A stretch of DNA of 64,000 nucleotides, from contig CAVYGQ010000001.1 of NCBI GenBank assembly GCA_963768175.1, positions 100,481 through 164,480 on the forward strand, given 5' to 3'. Of the stretch, positions 1,525-48,123 are shown in pieces. Origin of the DNA: Candidatus Doudnabacteria bacterium (GTDB lineage: Bacteria > Patescibacteriota > Doudnabacteria > UBA920). Below the pieces are notes generated by a model. The model saw nothing but the letters and a program-made list of their open reading frames with translations. It had not been told where the DNA came from and made no database searches. A program made the position numbers and the translations under genes. The stretch's first letter is position 1; every line of letters begins with the position of its first letter.

Positions 1525-3408
1525 ATGCCTAAAATTTGGAAAGTAAAAACCAAAATTCCCGATGACATCGCGCAAAATTTATCGGAGTATCCGGAACTTT
1601 TGCGGCAGCTGTTTTTTAATCGTGGATTGACGGGAAAAGACCAAATTCAGGATTTTTTGGAGCCAAAATACGAAAATCTATACAGCCCGTTTTTGTTTAA
1701 AGATATGGAAAAGGCGGTGGAGCGGATTTGGCAGGCAATTGACCGGAGTGAAAAAATTTGTATTTATGGCGACTATGATGCCGACGCGATTACTGCCAAC
1801 GCGGTGCTGGCGCAGACGTTTAAATATTTAGGCGTTGAGATTTTATCGTACATCCCTGACAGGTTTACCGAAGGATACGGCATTAATATCGATGCTCTGT
1901 TAAAGATAAAGGATGAAGGATCAAAGATAATCATAACCGTTGATTGCGGCACTAATTCCGCTGACGCGGCAGAGTTTTGCAAAAAAAATAATATCGATCT
2001 AATTATTACCGACCATCATGAAATCATCGGAGAGGTTCCTGATGCTTACGCGCTGATAAATCCCAAAAATCCCGATGACAATTATCTATACCGCGATATT
2101 ACGGGAGTCGGGGTGGCATTTAAGCTGGCTTGCGGGATTTTATCAAAACGTGAAAAAATTATCGCGCGTTTTGAACCCTCACCCCTAGCCCCTCTCCCAA
2201 AGGGGGAGGGGAAGCCCGGAGTTGTGGGATGGGAAAAGTGGCTGCTTGATTTGGTGGCCATCGGCACGGTGGCGGATTGCCACAGCCTACTGGGGGAGAA
2301 TCGGATATTAGTAAAGTATGGTTTAAAAGTTTTGGCCAAGACGAAGTGGATTGGTTTACGCGCGTTGATGGAATCCGCGGGTTTGGCAGAGGTGTCCCCT
2401 CTGCAGCAGAGGGGACACCTCTGCCCGTTGAAGCCGCTTGATACCTATACCCTAGGCTTTATCATCGCGCCGAGATTAAACGCGGCGGGCAGGCTGGAGC
2501 ATGCCGGCATTGCTTTGGATCTATTGCTGGAAACCGATGCCAATCGCGCAAACGAAAAAGCCCGCAAACTGGAAGCCATAAATACGCGCCGGCAGGGGCT
2601 GACTGCGGAGGTGTTAAGCGAGGCCAAGGAAAAGGTCTTATTGCTTAAGGAAAGAAAAGTTTTGGCACTTGTAGGTGAAGGTTGGCCCAAAGGCGTAATG
2701 GGCCTGGTCGCCGGTAAATTGGCCGAGGAATTTTATAAGCCTACGATTGTGTTGGAAAAAACGGAGAATTTATGCACTGGTTCGGCCAGAACCGCCGGCA
2801 AGTTTGATATTTTGGAGGCTTTAAAGTTTTCTTCCGAGCATTTGTCCAAATTTGGCGGCCATAAACAGGCCGCTGGTTTGAGTTTAGAGGCCAATAAATT
2901 TGACCTTTTTTACCAGAAACTATTGGAATATGCCGAGGTAAAAATTGCGCCGGAATCGGCACAAAAAGCCCTTGAGCTGGAAGCAAAACTTGAGGGTCAT
3001 GACCTAATACCTAACACCTATAACCTAATATCTAAACTCCAGCCATTCGGCGTGGACAATCCCACTCCAAAATTTTTAGTTTCCAATCTTGAAGTTTCAT
3101 CAATCCGCATGGTCGGCAAGCAAACCCAGCATTTGCAGGTGAGATTTATATTGCCTTTTCGGCGTCATTCTGACCCTGAGCGGAGCGAAGGGGAAGAATC
3201 TCAATCAAAAGGAGAGATCCTTCGCTCCGCTCAGGATGACGCCGGGGTGAGTGGCAGGGAAATCGCCGGTATTATGTTTAATGCGCCGGATTTTGCCAAA
3301 ACTTTGAAAATCGGCGATACTGTAGATGTCGCGGCAGAGTTAATTGAGGACGGGTGGAACGGGAAGAGGGAAGTGAAGTTGCGCATCGTAGACCTAAAAA
3401 TTATCTAA
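1525..3408 (+). CDS. recJ: Single-stranded-DNA-specific exonuclease RecJ (DHH/DHHA1), with three in-frame palindromic insertions
   Basis: The DHH motifs (ICIYGDYDADAITA, IITDHH) and a DHHA1 region with an OB-fold C-terminus are present. Extra peptide segments are encoded by palindromes at 2189-2211, 2387-2423 and 3160-3247. Confidence 0.9.
   Translation: MPKIWKVKTKIPDDIAQNLSEYPELLRQLFFNRGLTGKDQIQDFLEPKYENLYSPFLFKDMEKAVERIWQAIDRSEKICIYGDYDADAITANAVLAQTFKYLGVEILSYIPDRFTEGYGINIDALLKIKDEGSKIIITVDCGTNSADAAEFCKKNNIDLIITDHHEIIGEVPDAYALINPKNPDDNYLYRDITGVGVAFKLACGILSKREKIIARFEPSPLAPLPKGEGKPGVVGWEKWLLDLVAIGTVADCHSLLGENRILVKYGLKVLAKTKWIGLRALMESAGLAEVSPLQQRGHLCPLKPLDTYTLGFIIAPRLNAAGRLEHAGIALDLLLETDANRANEKARKLEAINTRRQGLTAEVLSEAKEKVLLLKERKVLALVGEGWPKGVMGLVAGKLAEEFYKPTIVLEKTENLCTGSARTAGKFDILEALKFSSEHLSKFGGHKQAAGLSLEANKFDLFYQKLLEYAEVKIAPESAQKALELEAKLEGHDLIPNTYNLISKLQPFGVDNPTPKFLVSNLEVSSIRMVGKQTQHLQVRFILPFRRHSDPERSEGEESQSKGEILRSAQDDAGVSGREIAGIMFNAPDFAKTLKIGDTVDVAAELIEDGWNGKREVKLRIVDLKII
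3160..3247. repeat. Family-1 palindromic element inserted in-frame in recJ
   Basis: ggcgtcattctgaccctgagcggagcgaagg ... ccttcgctccgctcaggatgacgcc encodes FRRHSDPERSEGEESQSKGEILRSAQDDAG without interrupting the ORF. Confidence 0.8.
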
Positions 3409-7857: not shown

Positions 7858-8068
7858 GTGTGCGCGAACGAGAACCAGATATCTAACGACGGAGAATATC
7901 CGTTGTTTTTTGTTGTTCACACCCCAAAGCTTTAGCGAAGGGGTGTGAACAACTTTAGTTGCAAAAAGGTTCACCCAGCGCTAATTTACGCTGGTTTATT
8001 ATTGATGCTGGTTTAAAATTAAGCGATTGACTTTAAGACTGTTTATGAGTATATTTAAATTAGTGCTG

Positions 8069-8090
8069 GGTGAACGAGCGTATACTATAT
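8069..8090 (+). promoter_or_regulatory. Candidate LexA operator (SOS box) in the dinB promoter
   Basis: GGTGAACGAGCGTATACTATAT matches GGTGAACGTTCGTATATTGTAT upstream of lexA (35562-35585) at 20 of 22 positions. It overlaps a TATACT -10-like hexamer. Confidence 0.45.
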
Positions 8091-8245
8091 CAATATAAAC
8101 ACTAAATCCTAAAAACTAAAAACTAAACAAATTATAAATTCTAAAATATAAAGTACAAACTGCTCCGTTTAAGGTTTCTGTTTAAAAATTTATGATTTAT
8201 GGTTTGTTTAGAGTTTAGAAATTAGATTTTAGATTTTTTGAATTT

Positions 8246-21085: not shown

Positions 21086-21706
21086 TTATGCGAACTGTTG
21101 CAACTGTCCTAAAATGGCCTGTTCCAGCTGAACAGTATCATAATGGCGTTGAGGCTTGATGTGTAAAATATTTAACTCTGAGGCTCTCAAAGCCCCGTCT
21201 AAAAAATCATCTCTTAATTTTCTATTGAAATAATTATGGGTATAATCATCCAGTTCAATAACCAAAAGTGGCGACAAATAAACTTTGTCAAAGATTACAA
21301 AATCTACTGTCTTTTTGTTTATCCTGTTAAAGTTGCTGTAAGTGGAATTTGTGCCGTATCTTTCCAGTCCGCCTTGGACTTCAATGATTCGGGATAAGGC
21401 AACCTGTGGCATAATAAAATACCTGTCCTTGATTATTTCCTGTAGCACTCCGAAAAACTTGTATTCGGTTTGGGTCATCAGGTATCGCTTTTTTCTGAAT
21501 GGATAAATTTTATCGTCTTTTTTTACTTCCTGAATTTTTGTATTGCCAGCATTACTAGGCGGTAAAGGTATCTCGGAATAATTTTGCTTTGAGCTTTTTA
21601 TGATGTAACTGGCAAGAATGATTATGATTATTAAACCAAATAAAAAATCCATAAATTTGCTTTTAGAAACACAAAGCCCCGGTCCAGCCGGGCTTTTACA
21701 CCCCAT
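21086..21706 (-). CDS. DUF2726-domain protein (NERD/restriction-endonuclease-like fold), membrane-anchored
   Basis: An N-terminal TM helix precedes the DUF2726 signature (TVDFVIFDKVYLSPLLVIELDDYTH ... RDDFLDGAL...LNILHIK). Confidence 0.55.
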   Translation of the reverse strand: MGCKSPAGPGLCVSKSKFMDFLFGLIIIIILASYIIKSSKQNYSEIPLPPSNAGNTKIQEVKKDDKIYPFRKKRYLMTQTEYKFFGVLQEIIKDRYFIMPQVALSRIIEVQGGLERYGTNSTYSNFNRINKKTVDFVIFDKVYLSPLLVIELDDYTHNYFNRKLRDDFLDGALRASELNILHIKPQRHYDTVQLEQAILGQLQQFA

Positions 21707-22000
21707 ACCCCTTTCGGGATATGACCATAAGACAGTAGCTGAACGCGGGGTTCAGTATGTCTTATGGTTTTACAGCCGTGCCTGATTAAAGGTTTAGGCC
21801 ATTCAGTTGTGATTAAATTATACCAAACTTGACAACAATTTTAAAGGGGTGTATGGTGGAGTTAGTTCATTAAAAAGTTAATAATTAAACGTAAGTTTTA
21901 TTTCTCCTCCCTCGGAGTAAGACAGGGGCTATGCCGTTTTGAACACAAAAACGGTGTGGCGTTTTGACCGCTTGTCTCAGCCATTAGAGGCCTTACAAAA

Positions 22001-22207: not shown

Positions 22208-22322
22208 ATTAAGCTACACATAAGGGGATTTAATAATTACATAATTAATTTTAAGTTCTGTCAAAATAATTTGTATTTTTCTTTTGGTTAGATATATAAT
22301 CAAGCTAATTAAAAAATCAAAT

Positions 22323-23792
22323 ATGAAATATATAATCTACACCCGTAAATCATCCGAGGCCTCTGACCGCCAAGTCCTGTCCATTGAATCGCAGGAAAAT
22401 GAGTTATTGGCTTTGGCTGATAGGAATGGGGCTAAGGTTGGTAAAATATTCCGTGAGAGTATGTCAGCCAAACAGCCAGGCCGTCCTGAATTTGAAAAAT
22501 TAATAAAACTGATTGAACAAAATCCCTGCTCTGTGCTATTCGTCTGGAAACTTGACCGCCTCGCTCGTAACCCCGTTGATGAGGGTAAAATTAAGTGGCT
22601 CCTGCAAAACAAGACCATAGCCCAAATTATTACGCCTGACAGAATTTATAATCCCAATGACAATGCCTTAATCGCTTCTGTGGAATTTGGAATGGCTAAT
22701 CAGTATATTCGTGATTTATCGTCCAATGTAAAACGAGGCAATAGGACTAAACTTCAAAAAGGTGAAATGCCTGGTGCGGCTCCTATCGGCTACTTGGATA
22801 ATCCCTTAACCAAATTAAAAACTATTGACGCTCTAAAAGCTCCACTGATAAAACAAGCATTTGAACTTTATGCGACTGGGGCATACAGCTTAAAAACAGT
22901 TGGTAAAATGATTGAGACTTCAGGCCTTAGAAGTAAACTCGGCAATCCTCTAAAAAAAGCCATACTGCACCATATGTTTACAAATCCTTTTTACTACGGA
23001 GCCATTAGGCATAATGGAGAAATATATCAAGGAGTTCACGAGCCAATTATTTCCAAAACATTATTTGATACAGTGCAATATGTCTTAAGCGGTAAAACCC
23101 GCCCTAAAAAACAAAAACACTTCTTCCCTGTTAGAGGCTATATGCTCTGTCATTCCTGCGGCTGTCTGCTTACTGCCACAACTAAAAAAGGCCATTCATA
23201 TTATTATTGCACTAATGGCAAAGGCAACTGCCAACAACACAAAAAATATTTAAGAGATAAAGCCGTGGACAAACTCGTGGCTAAAACCTTAAACGAAATT
23301 AAATTTGATACCTCAATGATTGAAATGGCTTATCTCGCTTACAAGGAAAAAATCCTAAATGGCAACGATAATTCTCAAACTAGAAAATCTGAACTCTCCT
23401 TACAGCTCAAATCTGAACAGGACAAGCTCTCTAATCTCGCCAAGGTTATTTCCTCTAAGCCGACACTCGCTAACTCCCTAGAGGCTGAAATTTTATCTCT
23501 AGAGGTAAAGATTAAATCCATTGAGCAACAGATTAAGCAAACTGACAAACAGACCCTCCAGGAGCAATTATTTACTTTGGAACAAACAAAAAAGGCCTTT
23601 TTACAGGCCAGTTCCGCATCTTTTGACTATTTGGATAGCGATGATTACCAAAAATTTGAACTGCTAAAAAATTTACTTTGGAACCTCAAGGTAGAAAATC
23701 AGAAAGTCCAACAATATCAGTTCAAAAGTTATTATCAACTTATGGCTGAAAGCCCTAAAAACCTTCAAATTTCTGGTTGGCTGGGGTGGTAG
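22323..23792 (+). CDS. Large serine recombinase (resolvase/invertase catalytic domain, recombinase domain, zinc ribbon)
   Basis: The N-terminus YIIYTRKSSEASDRQVLSIESQ carries the catalytic Ser, with a Cys cluster (CHSCGC...C) and a C-terminal coiled-coil. The likely start is the ATG at 22323. The 3' end overlaps a tRNA-Gln-derived repeat. Confidence 0.85.
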   Translation: MKYIIYTRKSSEASDRQVLSIESQENELLALADRNGAKVGKIFRESMSAKQPGRPEFEKLIKLIEQNPCSVLFVWKLDRLARNPVDEGKIKWLLQNKTIAQIITPDRIYNPNDNALIASVEFGMANQYIRDLSSNVKRGNRTKLQKGEMPGAAPIGYLDNPLTKLKTIDALKAPLIKQAFELYATGAYSLKTVGKMIETSGLRSKLGNPLKKAILHHMFTNPFYYGAIRHNGEIYQGVHEPIISKTLFDTVQYVLSGKTRPKKQKHFFPVRGYMLCHSCGCLLTATTKKGHSYYYCTNGKGNCQQHKKYLRDKAVDKLVAKTLNEIKFDTSMIEMAYLAYKEKILNGNDNSQTRKSELSLQLKSEQDKLSNLAKVISSKPTLANSLEAEILSLEVKIKSIEQQIKQTDKQTLQEQLFTLEQTKKAFLQASSASFDYLDSDDYQKFELLKNLLWNLKVENQKVQQYQFKSYYQLMAESPKNLQISGWLGW

Positions 23793-23803
23793 GATTCGAA
23801 CCT
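23778..23803 (-). repeat. Partial copy of the tRNA-Gln 3' end (candidate att-site direct repeat)
   Basis: tggctggggtggTaggattcgaacct matches the 3' 26 nt of tRNA-Gln at 26228-26253 with one mismatch. Confidence 0.6.
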
Positions 23804-23931
23804 TATTAGGTCTAGAACCAAACCCTTTTAATTATGGCCATAAATGTCCTTTAATATAAGTTGGGGCAATTTAGTTTCCAAAAGTATAAAGTGCTATACT
23901 ATAATTAAATAGATTATTATAGTATATAACT

Positions 23932-24639
23932 ATGGGGAAATATCCAAAAATTAAATTTATTATTGATTTTAAAGAAGACAAAAAAAATGCGCTGAGATTT
24001 TTAGGAGATACTAATGAATGGAAAAAGGAGCGTTTTTTTCCGTCTGAGTTACAATATGTTCTACAGAATAAATTAGCACAGAAAGAAAAACAAAGGATTG
24101 TTAATAACTTTGTTAAACAGTATTTTTTAAAAAATGAGTTTGAAATTAAAATTGGGGTAAGAGCAATTGCAAATGAATGGATGTCGATTGGAAGGTATTT
24201 TTTTGATCTAGTTGACAAGCTATTTTACGACCACCCTTGGCCAAAAGGAAACTACGTGGGATATGCAAGTATTTTTAATATGTTTCCTAGAGATATTGAG
24301 AAAAAAACCTTTTCATTTCCATATCGGAAGGAAGATGTCAGTTGGGCAATAAAAGTGATAGCCCATGAAATGTTACACTTTATTTTTTTTGACTATTTAA
24401 ATAAAGTGTATAGGTATACTCAAAATACCCAAATAAAAAATAAAAATTCAAACTTCATTTGGCAATTATCAGAGGCTCTAAACAATATAATAGAAAATTC
24501 GCGATCATACCGTAAGGTCATACCAATAAAAAAATTGAGCAAGCCATATCCAGGAAACGAAAAAATTTATAAAAAACTACTGGCCCAATGGAATAAAAAA
24601 AACGATATAAAAAAGTTATTGGATAGCGCTTTAGGGTAA
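23932..24639 (+). CDS. Hypothetical protein with an HExxH motif (possible zinc-dependent hydrolase)
   Basis: It has an IAHEMLH motif and an AT-rich composition. No other similarity was recognised. Confidence 0.45.
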   Translation: MGKYPKIKFIIDFKEDKKNALRFLGDTNEWKKERFFPSELQYVLQNKLAQKEKQRIVNNFVKQYFLKNEFEIKIGVRAIANEWMSIGRYFFDLVDKLFYDHPWPKGNYVGYASIFNMFPRDIEKKTFSFPYRKEDVSWAIKVIAHEMLHFIFFDYLNKVYRYTQNTQIKNKNSNFIWQLSEALNNIIENSRSYRKVIPIKKLSKPYPGNEKIYKKLLAQWNKKNDIKKLLDSALG

Positions 24640-24796
24640 ATAAAACGGAGCCCCAATCTTGGAAGAGAGGGGCTCCGCTACGATAGCGGCAGGAACGAGT
24701 CCTTGCCTAGGCGCAGTCGTAACCGCTGTTGACAGGTACCCCAAATTCTAGACACTTAGTCTGAGGTATAATAAGGCTAGAAAGGAATCTAACTTT

Positions 24797-25063
24797 ATGC
24801 CCAAAGGCAAATACAAAGTCAGTCCGGAAGTTAAAACTCAAATTCTAAAACGAATTAAGGAAGAAGGTGTCAGCGTCACCCAGGCGGCCGAGGAGCACGG
24901 CCTGTCCACCCAAACCATTTACGGCTGGATAGCCAAAGGGGTTACAGCTCCGCCGTCCGTGCTTGAACTCTCCCGCCTGAAGCGGGAAAATCAAACCCTC
25001 CACGAGATTATCGGCCGGCTGACAGTCAAACTGTCATTGGCGGAAAAAAAGGACATTGGTTGA
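24797..25063 (+). CDS. IS3 transposase OrfA (HTH plus leucine zipper)
   Basis: An HTH (VSVTQAAEEHGLSTQTIYGW) and a heptad-Leu C-terminus are present. The gene ends inside an A7G run at 25044-25051. Confidence 0.85.
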   Translation: MPKGKYKVSPEVKTQILKRIKEEGVSVTQAAEEHGLSTQTIYGWIAKGVTAPPSVLELSRLKRENQTLHEIIGRLTVKLSLAEKKDIG

Positions 25064-25895
25064 AGACCTGTCCGCCGCTATGCACCTTGAAAATCCGACT
25101 AAGACCGAGTTGGCCAGGAGCTTGGGAGTCAGCAGAGCCAGTCTGTATTACGAACCTACCCTGCCGCAAAAAGACTGGCTCCTTAAAATCCGCATTGAAC
25201 AAACCCTGCATGACCACCCCAGCTACGGCCACAAACGGCTGGCTCCGGCGCTACATGTTAACAAGAAAAGAATCCGGCGCACCATGAGGCTGTTTGGTAT
25301 TAAGCCTTACCGCAGGACAGGCAGAAAGCTAAGAAAAGCAAGGGATTTGGGACAAATTTCCGCTCCTTACCAAAACTGGCTGATGCTGATTCCGTTTCCA
25401 GAAGAGCCGGGAATTGTCTGGGTCAGTGACTTTACCTACATATCATTCCACGGCCGGTTTGTTTACCTGGCGACGATAATAGATTTATTCACCAGGGAGG
25501 TTGTCGGCTGGTCAGTCTGGACCGCGCATAGCAGCCAGCTAGTTCTACTGGCTTTAATTGACGCACTGGAAAAACATCCGGCGGCCAAATATCTCCATTC
25601 CGACCAGGGGCAAGAATACAAATCCCGAACCTACTGTAGGCTGGCCGAACAGGCCGGTATTACAATTTCCATGAGCCACAAATCATCACCGTGGGAGAAC
25701 GGCTACCAAGAATCCTTTTATGGCAAGCTCAAGACTGACTTAGGTGATCCGGGGAGGTTTAAGACCTTGGGAGAGCTAACGGCCGAAATTTACCTCCTCA
25801 TCTACAGCTACAACCACGACAGAATCCATACATCATTAAAAATGCCGCCGTCAGCATTTGCCGACCGGCAGCGGAATCAAGTATCATTAACTTAA
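25023..25895 (+). CDS. IS3 transposase OrfB (DDE integrase core), frame open from 25023 and overlapping orfA by 41 nt
   Basis: An rve-type DDE core is present (WVSDFTYI ... HSDQGQEY ... with a downstream E). It lies in the +1 frame relative to orfA. Confidence 0.85.
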   Translation, partial: QSNCHWRKKRTLVEDLSAAMHLENPTKTELARSLGVSRASLYYEPTLPQKDWLLKIRIEQTLHDHPSYGHKRLAPALHVNKKRIRRTMRLFGIKPYRRTGRKLRKARDLGQISAPYQNWLMLIPFPEEPGIVWVSDFTYISFHGRFVYLATIIDLFTREVVGWSVWTAHSSQLVLLALIDALEKHPAAKYLHSDQGQEYKSRTYCRLAEQAGITISMSHKSSPWENGYQESFYGKLKTDLGDPGRFKTLGELTAEIYLLIYSYNHDRIHTSLKMPPSAFADRQRNQVSLT

Positions 25896-26141
25896 CCTTA
25901 AAAAACCGCAGAGAAGGTGCCTAAAGAAATGGGTACCTTACAGGGGAAATTTCTTTCAGCTCTGTATAAAATTTAGCTATTAAAAGACAAAAAAGTGTAC
26001 CTGGAATGAAGTAGGACTTCGAACCAAGATAAACAATAGTTTAGACAAAAATAAGAGCATGGACTAAAATTCATGCTCTTATTTTCTATAAGTTCTTGTC
26101 CTTTAACTTAGGGTTGGTAGGTCTGTAGGAACCAAAATTTC

Positions 26142-26205
26142 TGGCTGCCCGGGTTGGATTCGGACCAACGCATGGAGGCTCCAAAGGCCCCCTTGCCCCG
26201 CACCA
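26142..26205 (-). other. Degenerate tRNA-Gln-like remnant (pseudo-tRNA)
   Basis: tggctgcccgggttggattcggaccaacgcatggaggctccaaaggccc... parallels the tRNA-Gln 3' two-thirds, including the CTTTGGAG anticodon region. The acceptor stem cannot pair and the length is only ~64 nt. Confidence 0.4.
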
Positions 26206-26227
26206 ATTTTTAACAAATTTATTCTCT

Positions 26228-26302
26228 TTGGCTGGGGTGGCAGGATTCGAACCTGCGAATGGCGCCTCCAAAGGGCGCTGCCTTACCACTTGGCGACACC
26301 CC
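26228..26302 (-). tRNA. tRNA-Gln (anticodon UUG)
   Basis: The minus strand reads UGGGGUGUCGCCAAGUGGUAAGGCAGCGCCCUUUGGAGGCGCCAUUCGCAGGUUCGAAUCCUGCCACCCCAGCCA. It folds as a cloverleaf with U1-A72, a 7-nt anticodon loop CUUUGGA and an encoded CCA. It is close to E. coli tRNA-Gln. Confidence 0.9.
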
Positions 26303-26439
26303 AAAATAAGACAACTAAGGTATATTATAAAATAAATTCGGGAAAAAAGAAAGCCCAACCTTGAGTATGGGGAGCTTGCGGAATTTGCGTTTGACAGCCA
26401 AAATGTGCTATAATTTCTTTAGGATTAATCCCTAAATTT

Positions 26440-34405: not shown

Positions 34406-34471
34406 GATTGACAAGATTAGACATAGATAATTCTTGTCAATCTTGGTCAATTATGTCATTCTTGTCAATCC
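34406..34471 (+). promoter_or_regulatory. Operator-like cluster: three copies of an 11-bp site (GATTGACAAGA, then TTCTTGTCAATC twice)
   Basis: An inverted copy lies at 34406-34416 and direct copies at 34431-34442 and 34459-34470. The cluster overlaps TTGACA and TAGATAAT promoter-like hexamers upstream of ORF 34476. Confidence 0.45.
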
Positions 34472-34475
34472 TACT

Positions 34476-35057
34476 ATGCTCGAAGAAATAATAGATTCCA
34501 AGGTAAATTCCGGTGTTTTAAGTTTTTTCCTGGCTATGCCCGAAAGGAGTTTTTCGGTCCTGGAGGTTTCCAGAAGGCTGGGTATTCCATATTTAAAGGC
34601 CGCACACAACTTGGCCAAATTAGCCGGCGTTGGTCTGTTAATAGTTTTTACCAAAAAGACCAAAAAGTATTATTACATTAATCCGCATTACAAGCTTCTT
34701 CCGGAAATAAAAAATTTTTGGGCAAAAAACGGGCAAAAGGGCAAAGACGAATTATTTTTGGCCATAAGAAGTCTGGGCGATGTCCGTGCCGCGTTTTTAA
34801 GCGGCATTTTTACCGGCTATTCCAATTTGCCGGTGGACGTTTTGCTGGTGGGCAAAATCAATTTGTGGAAACTTTCCGATTTCCTTAAAGCCGCAGAAAA
34901 AATGATGGGCCAGGAAATCAATTACAGCATAATGACCGTGGAAGAATTTTTACAACGCCGCGATACTTTTGATAAATTTATTAAAGACGTTTTTGACTAT
35001 CGGCATTTGGCAGTGGTCGACACGTTGCGCAAAAAATCCCCTAAAAGCGCAAAGTAA
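34476..35057 (+). CDS. Hypothetical protein with N-terminal winged-helix DNA-binding domain
   Basis: A MarR/ArsR-like wHTH (SVLEVSRRLGIPYLKAAHNLAKLAGVGLL) is present. The ATG at 34476 is preferred over the listed TTG start at 34434, which lies inside the repeat cluster. Confidence 0.45.
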   Translation: MLEEIIDSKVNSGVLSFFLAMPERSFSVLEVSRRLGIPYLKAAHNLAKLAGVGLLIVFTKKTKKYYYINPHYKLLPEIKNFWAKNGQKGKDELFLAIRSLGDVRAAFLSGIFTGYSNLPVDVLLVGKINLWKLSDFLKAAEKMMGQEINYSIMTVEEFLQRRDTFDKFIKDVFDYRHLAVVDTLRKKSPKSAK

Positions 35058-35324: not shown

Positions 35325-35552
35325 CAATAACAACAACTATAACTATAACAAACCCAAGATGAGCAAGTTATAGTTATTTTTATTTTATTGTTATAGTTAA
35401 ACTTGTGGATAACTTTAAGGTAAACGTTAGTTTACCCCGTACCAAATTTGGTGGATAACCAAATTTGGTGTTTTTTTATAATTATCAAAAAAAATCAAAA
35501 TGTCCAATAAAATAAGCATTTGATGCGGGGTTTACCTTGTTTTTATTGGTAT

Positions 35553-35585
35553 TTGACACTTGGTGAACGTTCGTATATTGTATAT
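35553..35585 (+). promoter_or_regulatory. lexA promoter (TTGACA -35) with candidate SOS box GGTGAACGTTCGTATATTGTAT
   Basis: TTGACA lies at 35553-35558. The motif shared with the dinB promoter contains the palindromic core GAACGTTC. Confidence 0.5.
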
Positions 35586-36263: not shown

Positions 36264-36617
36264 ATGCAAACTTATAAAGATCTTATTGTTTGGAAGAAGT
36301 CCATGGAATTGGTTGTCGTTGTTTACAAACTTACCGATTTTTATCCGGCCTCTGAACAATATGGTTTGACTTCTCAATCACGCCGATGCTCAGTTTCCAT
36401 ACCTTCAAATATAGCTGAGGGTAAACGGCGCGGGACTATTAAGGAATTCAGACATTTTTTGTTAATTTCTTATGGCTCCGGAGCCGAATTAGAAACTCAA
36501 ATTGAGATCGCAAAACGGTTATCGTGGGGGCAAAAATTAGATTTTACAAAAGTGGATAGGCTGTTAGAAGAAGTTATGAAGATTTTAAACAAAATGATTA
36601 ATAACTTACAAGGTTGA
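36264..36617 (+). CDS. Four-helix-bundle protein (TIGR02436-like, the '23S rRNA intervening sequence protein' family)
   Basis: YKLTDFYPASEQYGLTSQ.RR...SIPSNIAEG...EF..FL.IS.GS..ELETQ matches the family pattern. Confidence 0.7.
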   Translation: MQTYKDLIVWKKSMELVVVVYKLTDFYPASEQYGLTSQSRRCSVSIPSNIAEGKRRGTIKEFRHFLLISYGSGAELETQIEIAKRLSWGQKLDFTKVDRLLEEVMKILNKMINNLQG

Positions 36618-47540: not shown

Positions 47541-48123
47541 ATGGCTTTAAAAAAAATCATACTTGATTTAGAGACACAAAAATCTTTCCAAGATGTCGGG
47601 GGGCGGGGGAAGAACCATTTGCTAAAAGTCAGCGTGTGCGTAATTTACGATTACGCCACAAATAAATATACGGCTTACGAGGAGCACGAGCTGGGCAAAC
47701 TCGCGCCGGTTTTGCAGACGGCCGACCAGATTATCGGTTATAACATAAAAGATTTTGACTTTGAAGTCTTAAGGCCTTATTTGAATTTTAATATCCACGA
47801 AGTGCCGTATTTGGATTTGTTGGAAGAAATAGAAAAAGTTTTGCAGCATCGCATAAAGTTAGAAGTCAGTCGCCCAGGGTACACTGGGCAGCGGTAAATC
47901 CGGCACTGGGCTGGAGGCACTTTTGTATTATAAGAACGGTCGTATGGATTTGCTGAAGAAATATTGTCTGGACGACGTAAAAATTACCAAGCAAATTTAC
48001 GATTACGCGCTAAAAAACCAAAAAGTTTTGTATAAAGATTTTTTTAAGACCAAAGAGATACCGTTAAAGATTGCGGAAGCCGTGCCGAGGGTTGGGGTAA
48101 AACATCAAGCGTCTTTATTTTAA
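47541..48123 (+). pseudogene. Predicted 3'-5' exonuclease (RNase H-like fold, YprB/PolB-exo-like) carrying a +1 frameshift near 47862-47866
   Basis: The N-terminal part has exo motif I (IILDLETQ) and motif II (GYNIKDFDFEVL). The C-terminal part (…TLGSGKSGTGLEALLYYKNGRMDLLKKYCLDDVKIT, the motif III region) continues in the +1 frame from 47863. The ORF track shows two pieces, 47541-47897 and 47923-48123. Confidence 0.55.

Follow-up and report, generated by a model that had tools for sequence, protein, structure and literature searches.

Genes and motif copies in the window

The DNA analysed here, hereafter the window, is a stretch of 64,000 nucleotides (nt) of contig CAVYGQ010000001.1 (positions 100,481 to 164,480, forward strand) from the Candidatus Doudnabacteria assembly GCA_963768175.1, and carries the genes for the LexA repressor and the Y-family DNA polymerase IV, DinB (Table 1). 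The original prediction, made from the letters of the window, proposed that a 22-nt motif shared by the lexA and dinB promoters is the SOS box of this lineage. Both copies were indeed present on the forward strand, GGTGAACGTTCGTATATTGTAT at 35562-35583, 27 nt 5' of the lexA open reading frame (ORF), and GGTGAACGAGCGTATACTATAT at 8069-8090, about 155 nt 5' of the dinB ORF, though they were identical at 18 of 22 positions (mismatches at 9, 10, 17 and 19) instead of the 20 claimed, and the lexA copy ended at 35583 and not at 35585.

When up to three mismatches were allowed, a degenerate 22-mer matched the window at these two places only and matched none of 100 shuffled sequences, and on the forward strand of the 64 kb GGTGAAC was found solely at the two sites. 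A 17-nt weight matrix was built from 55 distinct lexA-upstream sites of other Doudnabacteria genomes, leaving the window out; its top two matches in the window were the dinB and lexA sites (Table 1), followed by a match of 17.5 bits, and 30 Markov shuffles reached a maximum of 16.0 bits and yielded 0.07 matches of at least 12 bits per shuffle. The agreement between the lexA and dinB 22-mers is far beyond chance. A third window match, GAACGGTCGTAT at 47934, was set aside as a chance match inside a coding region, without matrix support; it falls within two adjoining ORFs in different frames (47541-48123; 118 and 66 amino acids), the first with an RNase_H_2-like match, which look like a single gene split by a frameshift.

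Conservation at lexA, dinB and recA

We examined 80 lexA loci from species-representative genomes, of which 67 were of the Doudnabacteria/Patescibacteria type (one, L013, titled Omnitrophota) and 12 were Calditrichota; L071, titled only 'bacterium', grouped with Calditrichota. LexA homologues at 80-97% identity had Candidatus Doudnabacteria or Patescibacteria as their source names. The box was present 5' of lexA in all 66 Doudnabacteria loci having upstream sequence. In Doudnabacteria DNA reaching at most 10 kb to each side of lexA, 1.06 Mb in total, 90 matches of at least 15 bits were found, all but two of them directly 5' of lexA. The frequency was about one site per 15-20-kb locus. The distance from site to lexA was 340-600 nt in six loci because a small gene intervenes between promoter and lexA, these genes being of the 23S-rRNA-intervening-sequence type, of the GxxExxY type or of unknown type. 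Such an intervening-sequence-type or, by sequence, GxxExxY-looking gene inserted between the SOS promoter and lexA (L003, L006, L008, L011, L044 and L061) would therefore be co-transcribed with lexA. In the window, a gene of the 23S-rRNA-intervening-sequence type lies 3' of lexA (36264-36617).

As recA, uvrA and ruvAB were absent from the window genes, canonical SOS genes were checked in relatives. All seven independently fetched dinB orthologue loci (53-78% identity, from at least seven assemblies) had the box 60-200 nt upstream of the gene; within these 7-kb loci it was the sole match of at least 10 bits in six and the top match in the seventh. Of five Doudnabacteria recA loci, three had the box (L199, L222 and L225) and two did not (L223 and L224). 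The RecJ gene of the window (1525-3408) was without a site. Conservation in related genomes and further sites at canonical SOS genes, both of which the original prediction had named as checks, were thus found, and they support a candidate SOS box for this lineage: the element occupies the promoter of lexA itself and those of other SOS genes (dinB, recA), has dyad symmetry, and occurs with a cognate LexA that combines a winged helix-turn-helix (wHTH) with an S24 peptidase domain.

Promoter and proposed operator share the same bases

Over the 55 genomes the sites gave the consensus TTGACA-N4-G1TGAACG-N3-G11TATAC-TAT, in which G1, T2, A5, C6, G7, G11, T12, T14, A15 and T19 were invariant, G3 was present in 52 of 55, position 4 was A (39) or T (15), and TTGAC at -9 to -5 was invariant or nearly so. 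This sequence can be read in two ways at once. As a promoter, it comprises TTGACA (-9 to -4), a spacing of 17 nt and TAYTAT (14-19); the A2 and T6 that characterise a -10 hexamer are invariant. As an operator, it comprises GTGAAC (1-6) and GTATAC (11-16), an imperfect 16-bp palindrome around a 4-nt centre, of the form GT[G/A][A/T]AC-N4-GT[A/T][T/C]AC, in which the invariant positions 1, 2, 5, 6, 11, 12 and 15 are mutually symmetric. The overlap of the motif with the -10 region, which had been claimed for both genes, was confirmed at lexA and in the box-embedded dinB promoter (Table 1).

Secondary boxes off any -10 occurred in five loci (L020, L028, L032, L041 and L059); their left halves read TGAAC, TGTAC or TATAC and their right halves GTACA, GTTTA or GTATA, and from these we derive the half-site T-R-W-A-C. 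The asymmetry of the primary site is most likely explained by its right half, GTATAC and not GTTCAC, doubling as the start of the -10 hexamer. The palindrome GAACGTTC to which the original prediction drew attention was in the lexA copy only and is not the conserved dyad, which is GTGAAC-N4-GTATAC; since the central four bases vary freely among genomes, it was ruled out as a functional palindrome and is an accident of that copy.

LexA and its recognition helix

By its sequence, the window protein is a complete LexA. It aligned end to end with solved LexA repressor structures (E = 2e-35), its Ala-Gly cleavage site (NIQAGTP) and lysine motif (TVKRF) aligned to their structure counterparts, and a serine motif, GDSM, could be read from the sequence. 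Its recognition helix, KSKNAVAKLL, differs from that of Bacillus subtilis LexA. Across the 66 loci the recognition helix was nearly always KSKNAVAKLLNALE. It was replaced by KSKRAAAKHLEALE in the LexA of L052, L054 and L060, and the boxes of these three alone had GTACAC or GTATAC on the left and, after N4, GTGTAC or GTATAC on the right, that of L054 being the perfect palindrome GTATACGATCGTATAC. In the genome of L055/L099, a rare GTAAAC half-site was shared by the lexA and dinB boxes. Calditrichota, whose LexA is 44-52% identical, had GTGTAC-N4-GTACAY 5' of lexA in 9 of 11 loci. Helix-box co-variation and the Calditrichota boxes tie the motif to this LexA subfamily, through few independent evolutionary events.

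Insertions in the dinB and lexA promoter regions

The promoter embedded in the dinB box was identified by homology because it scored below the promoter-scan threshold; the ancestral arrangement has been interrupted by an insertion of 101 nt (Table 1). The ends of the insertion pair as inverted 20-nt arms (7969-7988 and 8056-8075) of 95% complementarity. With 7969-8069 deleted, the sequence reads TGTGAACAAC-TTTAG-TTGCAA-AAAG-GTGAACGAGCGTATACTAT and is again colinear with the promoter of dinB in L085, L086 and L101. The part displaced upstream (7944-7968) aligned column by column with TGTGGATAAC-N6-TTGATA-AAAG-GTGAAC of L085 and relatives. A partial reverse-complement copy at 7968-7981, which the earlier reading had flagged as a possible sign of a repeat family, was real and longer than described, and is explained as the other end of the insertion. 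The insertion also brings a promoter-like site (8027-8055) 5' of the box, which would place the predicted operator at about +7 to +23, where LexA could still act as a repressor, both as a roadblock and by occluding the weak box-embedded promoter.

Upstream of lexA, a second insertion (35437-35536; 100 nt), flanked by duplicated GTTTACC, splits a terminator-type hairpin that was unsplit in L001, L005, L009, L012, L022 and L024. Both inserts were absent in relatives and unrelated to each other, and no further copies of either were present in the window or the fetched loci. The 5' part of the split hairpin, GGTAAACGTTAGTTTAC (35419-35435), was itself box-like, scoring 17.5 bits with the LexA matrix, and about a dozen relatives had the same GGTAAAC-N4-GTTTACC palindrome 43-53 nt 5' of the main box; that GGTAAACGTTAGTTTAC serves as a second operator besides being a terminator stem is uncertain. 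In the dinB leader (8097-8237), short A/T-rich tandem units make up an imperfect inverted repeat of 64 nt (minimum free energy -29.2 kcal/mol, z = -3.1), and other dinB and lexA leaders in relatives had different short-unit repeats at the equivalent place.

Table 1. Predicted genes, promoters, operators and associated elements of the lexA and dinB regions of the window
Feature	Coordinates	Strand	Description
LexA operator (predicted), lexA promoter	35562..35578	+	GGTGAACGTTCGTATAT, dyad GTGAAC-N4-GTATAT; 25.5 bits; homologous site in 66/66 Doudnabacteria lexA loci
LexA operator (predicted), dinB	8069..8085	+	GGTGAACGAGCGTATAC; 25.7 bits, best window match; homologous box in 7/7 orthologue loci
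lexA promoter (predicted)	35553..35581	+	-35 TTGACA 35553-58, 17 nt, -10 TATTGT 35576-81; promoter scan; operator fills spacer and overlaps -10
lexA, 205 amino acids	35610..36227	+	Pfam LexA_DNA_bind (PF01726) 6.9e-16, Peptidase_S24 (PF00717) 3.2e-33
dinB, Y-family DNA polymerase IV, 465 amino acids	8246..9643	+	Pfam IMS 1e-35, IMS_C, IMS_HHH_1; homologues source-named DNA polymerase IV
Box-embedded dinB promoter (by homology)	8060..8088	+	weak -35 TTAGTG 8060-65, 17 nt, -10 TACTAT 8083-88; register as in lexA and the L085/L086/L101 dinB promoters
Second promoter-like site, dinB insertion	8027..8055	+	TTGACT-17-TATATT, 10/12 matches (promoter scan); stronger than box-embedded promoter
Insertion of 101 nt with inverted ends	7969..8069	+	between ancestral -35 and dinB operator
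Displaced part of ancestral dinB promoter	7944..7968	+	degenerate DnaA-box-like TGTGAACAAC 7944-53, -35 TTGCAA 7959-64, AAAG
Terminator-type hairpin	35417..35538	+	inverted repeat AAGGTAAAC / GTTTACCTT followed by T-run; split by 100-nt insertion
DnaA-box-like element	35404..35413	+	TGTGGATAAC, reverse complement of TTATCCACA; sole exact copy in window

Elsewhere in the window, a match to the Rfam LOOT RNA was found on the reverse strand at 21690-21800 (70.3 bits, against a gathering threshold of 46.4). A serine recombinase (22284-23792) and an rve-type integrase (25056-25895) adjoin a tRNA-Gln (26229-26303), and the region 22284-26303 may be an integrated element.

Promoter-operator modules in metagenomes

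Scanning metagenome contigs with GGTGWACRNNNGTATACTAT, a pattern of which TTGAC is not part, gave at least 120 loci (L102-L221) in 109 distinct contexts. Among the matches listed, to which all counts of metagenomic modules given here refer, 51 of the 109 contexts had TTGAC at exactly -9 to -5, compared with about 0.1 expected, and the site therefore belongs to a promoter. These 51 contexts are promoter-operator modules, and the remaining matches look like chance. Genes 3' of the modules included SOS genes (lexA 12, dinB 2, recA 1), and also RhuM/Fic genes (9), N6/N4 DNA methyltransferases (7), C5 DNA methyltransferases (5), DUF5666 secreted proteins (4), DpnI-type nucleases (3), ORF6N genes (2), PIF1-type helicases (2), Eco57I-like methylases (2), and HNH and Bro-N genes. 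The modules share the full signature of the Doudnabacteria promoters, on contigs whose taxonomy is not established; the genes that follow them suggest a putative SOS-type control of restriction-modification and mobile-element genes. Mobile and defence elements have recruited host LexA boxes in other bacteria, as in colicins, integrons and prophages. Viral contigs scanned with GGTGAACRNNNGTATACTAT gave 12 matches in three redundant families, apparently within coding sequence and without a -35, which we attribute to chance; there was no sign of phage use of the box in the contigs so scanned.

A DnaA-box-like partner element

The 9-mer TGTGGATAA at 35404-35412, upstream of the lexA box, is exactly the reverse complement of the DnaA-box consensus TTATCCACA. 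In 62 of the 66 loci, an exact forward copy was found no more than 250 nt 5' of the lexA box, and the other four had a copy with one mismatch at the equivalent place. This element was 56-58 nt from the lexA box in about 45 loci; further clusters of distances, at 67-68 nt and 77-78 nt, each lay about a helical turn further out. A hairpin of variable sequence followed by a T-run separated the element from the -35. Just 21 other copies occurred in 1.04 Mb around lexA, several of them within coding sequence. The element was also found at all three box-bearing recA promoters and at the dinB promoters of L085 and L101; it was not found at the Calditrichota lexA promoters. Of 49 metagenomic modules with enough upstream sequence, 39 had an exact copy, compared with about 0.04 expected: 18 forward copies, mostly at -57, and 21 reverse copies, which either lay directly against the -35 (-18/-19) or stood 9 nt upstream of it (-26 to -28). 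No copy was located downstream of the box in any of the 49.

The DnaA-box consensus (TGTGGATAACT / AGTTATCCACA) thus occurred at discrete positions upstream of approximately 80-95% of SOS-box promoters. That the element is identical to the DnaA box, occurs in either orientation and keeps to phased positions suggests a binding site for a DNA-bound protein, most simply DnaA. Neither dnaA nor oriC was present in the window or in any fetched locus. Paired TTATCCACA/TGTGGATAA copies about 400 nt 5' of lexA in L032, L042 and L066 were rejected as a coding coincidence inside the upstream gene (D-Y-P-H...V-V-D-K). In the window, 34434-35057 is a conserved gene of 207 amino acids without a Pfam hit, two genes 5' of lexA, with an N-terminus that is winged-helix-like by eye; its D-Y-P-H...V-V-D-K coding sequence yields the paired DnaA-box look-alikes in some relatives.

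Proposed mechanism and alternative explanations

We consider it very likely that the motif is a LexA operator of the GAAC-N4-GTTC kind, whose right half has diverged under the constraint of the -10 hexamer, and that it acts by promoter occlusion relieved by RecA-stimulated self-cleavage of LexA. The prediction of binding, repression and induction by damage draws on the sequence and its conservation, on gene association and promoter register, on the protein domains and on helix-box co-variation. A LexA dimer would bind the imperfect 16-bp palindrome GTGAAC-N4-GTATAC through its T-R-W-A-C half-sites. In a sigma-70-type promoter with TTGACA and TAYTAT 17 nt apart, the palindrome lies in the spacer and reaches into the -10, so that bound LexA would keep RNA polymerase off the promoters of lexA and dinB; at the window dinB, the upstream promoter carried by the insertion would be blocked instead, by LexA at about +7 to +23. 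Upon DNA damage, RecA filaments would stimulate LexA to cleave itself at the Ala-Gly bond by means of its Ser/Lys dyad, and cleavage would raise the expression of dinB, which encodes the translesion polymerase IV, of lexA itself, which would be under negative autoregulation, and, in the relatives with a recA box, of recA.

Several observations weigh against this interpretation. The match of the site to the GAAC-N4-GTTC class is inexact, its right half differing at two positions, and the window contained no exact GAAC-N4-GTTC match. Two of the five relatives lack the box at recA (L223 and L224), and the helix-box co-variation comes from one clade and so represents one evolutionary event. Most of the promoter-type metagenomic instances precede restriction-modification and mobile-element genes, which are not canonical SOS genes, and it is therefore formally possible that a different regulator also controls lexA. 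On that explanation, the box would be the operator of another transcription factor, for instance a restriction-modification or mobile-element regulator, which also controls lexA, dinB and recA, with LexA binding elsewhere or nowhere. About three quarters of the promoter-type instances precede methyltransferase, DpnI, RhuM/Fic, ORF6N, Bro-N, HNH or PIF1 helicase genes, recA has the box in only three of five loci, and the winged-helix-like gene at 34434-35057 could be such a regulator. We nevertheless regard this explanation as improbable. Mobile elements are well known to recruit LexA boxes, and a box at lexA in all 66 genomes is the hallmark of LexA autoregulation. The box and the LexA recognition helix change together, and Calditrichota LexA homologues have the related GTGTAC-N4-GTACA at lexA. 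Moreover, the AC-N4-GT dyad with a TGAAC half-site is the known architecture of Gram-positive-type LexA boxes (PMC4951493).

It is very improbable that the similarity reflects only the elements of a shared strong promoter (-35, spacer and -10), with no repressor involved. The motif is embedded in TTGACA-17-TAYTAT and part of the 22-mer is the -10 itself, but spacer positions 1-12 are dyad-symmetric and more conserved than the promoter hexamers, a degree of spacer conservation that goes far beyond what a promoter needs. The motif also precedes just 2 of about 55 window genes and is similarly sparse around lexA in relatives, and the secondary boxes lie away from any -10. It is scarcely credible that both copies are leftovers of a dispersed repeat or a miniature mobile element: one arm of the 20-nt inverted repeat forms the left edge of the dinB copy and both promoter regions have insertions of about 100 nt, but the window holds two copies in 64 kb, the similarity between the lexA and dinB loci is confined to about 35 bp, 88 of the 90 matrix matches in 1.06 Mb sit at lexA promoters, the inserts are mutually unrelated and unique in the window and fetched loci, and the position of the box relative to orthologous genes is constant in dozens of species without insertions, a pattern unlike that of a generic repeat family.

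Beyond the LexA operator, we raise tentatively a wider possibility, which we think rather unlikely as a whole, that a DNA-damage regulon is gated jointly by LexA and DnaA through bipartite promoters, with TGTGGATAACT in either orientation, and that this module may have been recruited to restriction-modification, mobile and defence genes. If the bipartite arrangement is real, replication stress would be linked to defence and modification in organisms that possess very few regulators.

Comparison with known SOS systems

The analysis provides a precise operator and promoter model for the SOS response in an uncultured lineage of the candidate phyla radiation (CPR), comprising the predicted operator sequence, its register with the -35 and -10, the tolerance of its half-sites and the co-varying helix residues. 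Sanchez-Osuna, Barbe and Erill (2017; Environ Microbiol 19:3465) reportedly described the SOS network of Patescibacteria, its LexA motifs and regulons, by comparative genomics, and are said to have found a small regulon and a Gram-positive-like motif. The statement in the original prediction that the LexA operator of CPR-type bacteria is not well defined overlooked that study and is therefore outdated; the 2017 work is cited among the sources of 17 known LexA motifs (PMC8565304) and also in PMC7739468.

LexA motifs of the GAAC-N4-GTTC class, with variants in Cyanobacteria and Chloroflexi, have been described (PMC4951493). Like the Cheo/DinR box of Firmicutes and Actinobacteria, the Doudnabacteria box has equal dyad spacing, an invariant AC-N4-GT core and an identical left half, TGAAC; it likewise occurs in lexA, recA and dinB promoters with a cognate LexA of wHTH and S24 domains, the binding of which is predicted here. 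Unlike the Cheo/DinR box, it has GTATA(C) in place of GTTCG as its right half, so that it reads GAAC-N4-GTAT and falls outside strict GAAC-N4-GTTC membership; its half-site is degenerate (TGAAC, TGTAC, TATAC, TAAAC), and a constant overlap of the primary site with the -10 is the probable cause of the asymmetry. The Calditrichota palindrome, GTGTAC-N4-GTACAY, shares the AC-N4-GT core and GTAC-type half-sites, but is more symmetric, lies downstream of the -10 and is without a DnaA-box-like partner. GTAC-type half-sites also form the cyanobacterial LexA box, RGTAC-N3-DGTWCB.

The Escherichia coli SOS box, CTGT-N8-ACAG, has the same logic of an autoregulated lexA and promoter occlusion, but its sequence and dyad spacing are unrelated. 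E. coli uvrB, recN and dinJ are repressed jointly by DnaA and LexA, with DnaA as a second repressor (PMC6015884), and so also combine a DnaA box with LexA boxes in one SOS promoter region. In E. coli, however, this concerns few genes with overlapping or scattered boxes, whereas in Doudnabacteria a perfect 9-mer recurs at fixed, helically phased positions upstream of about 80-95% of SOS-box promoters, where DnaA may bind. The element is thus of an ordinary kind, a LexA operator at lexA and dinB, in a lineage-specific form, and on its own it extends a well-known system; the parts most likely to be new are the DnaA-box pairing and the restriction-modification targets. If either of these were confirmed, genome-reduced bacteria would couple DNA damage, replication status and defence by means of two universal DNA-binding proteins.

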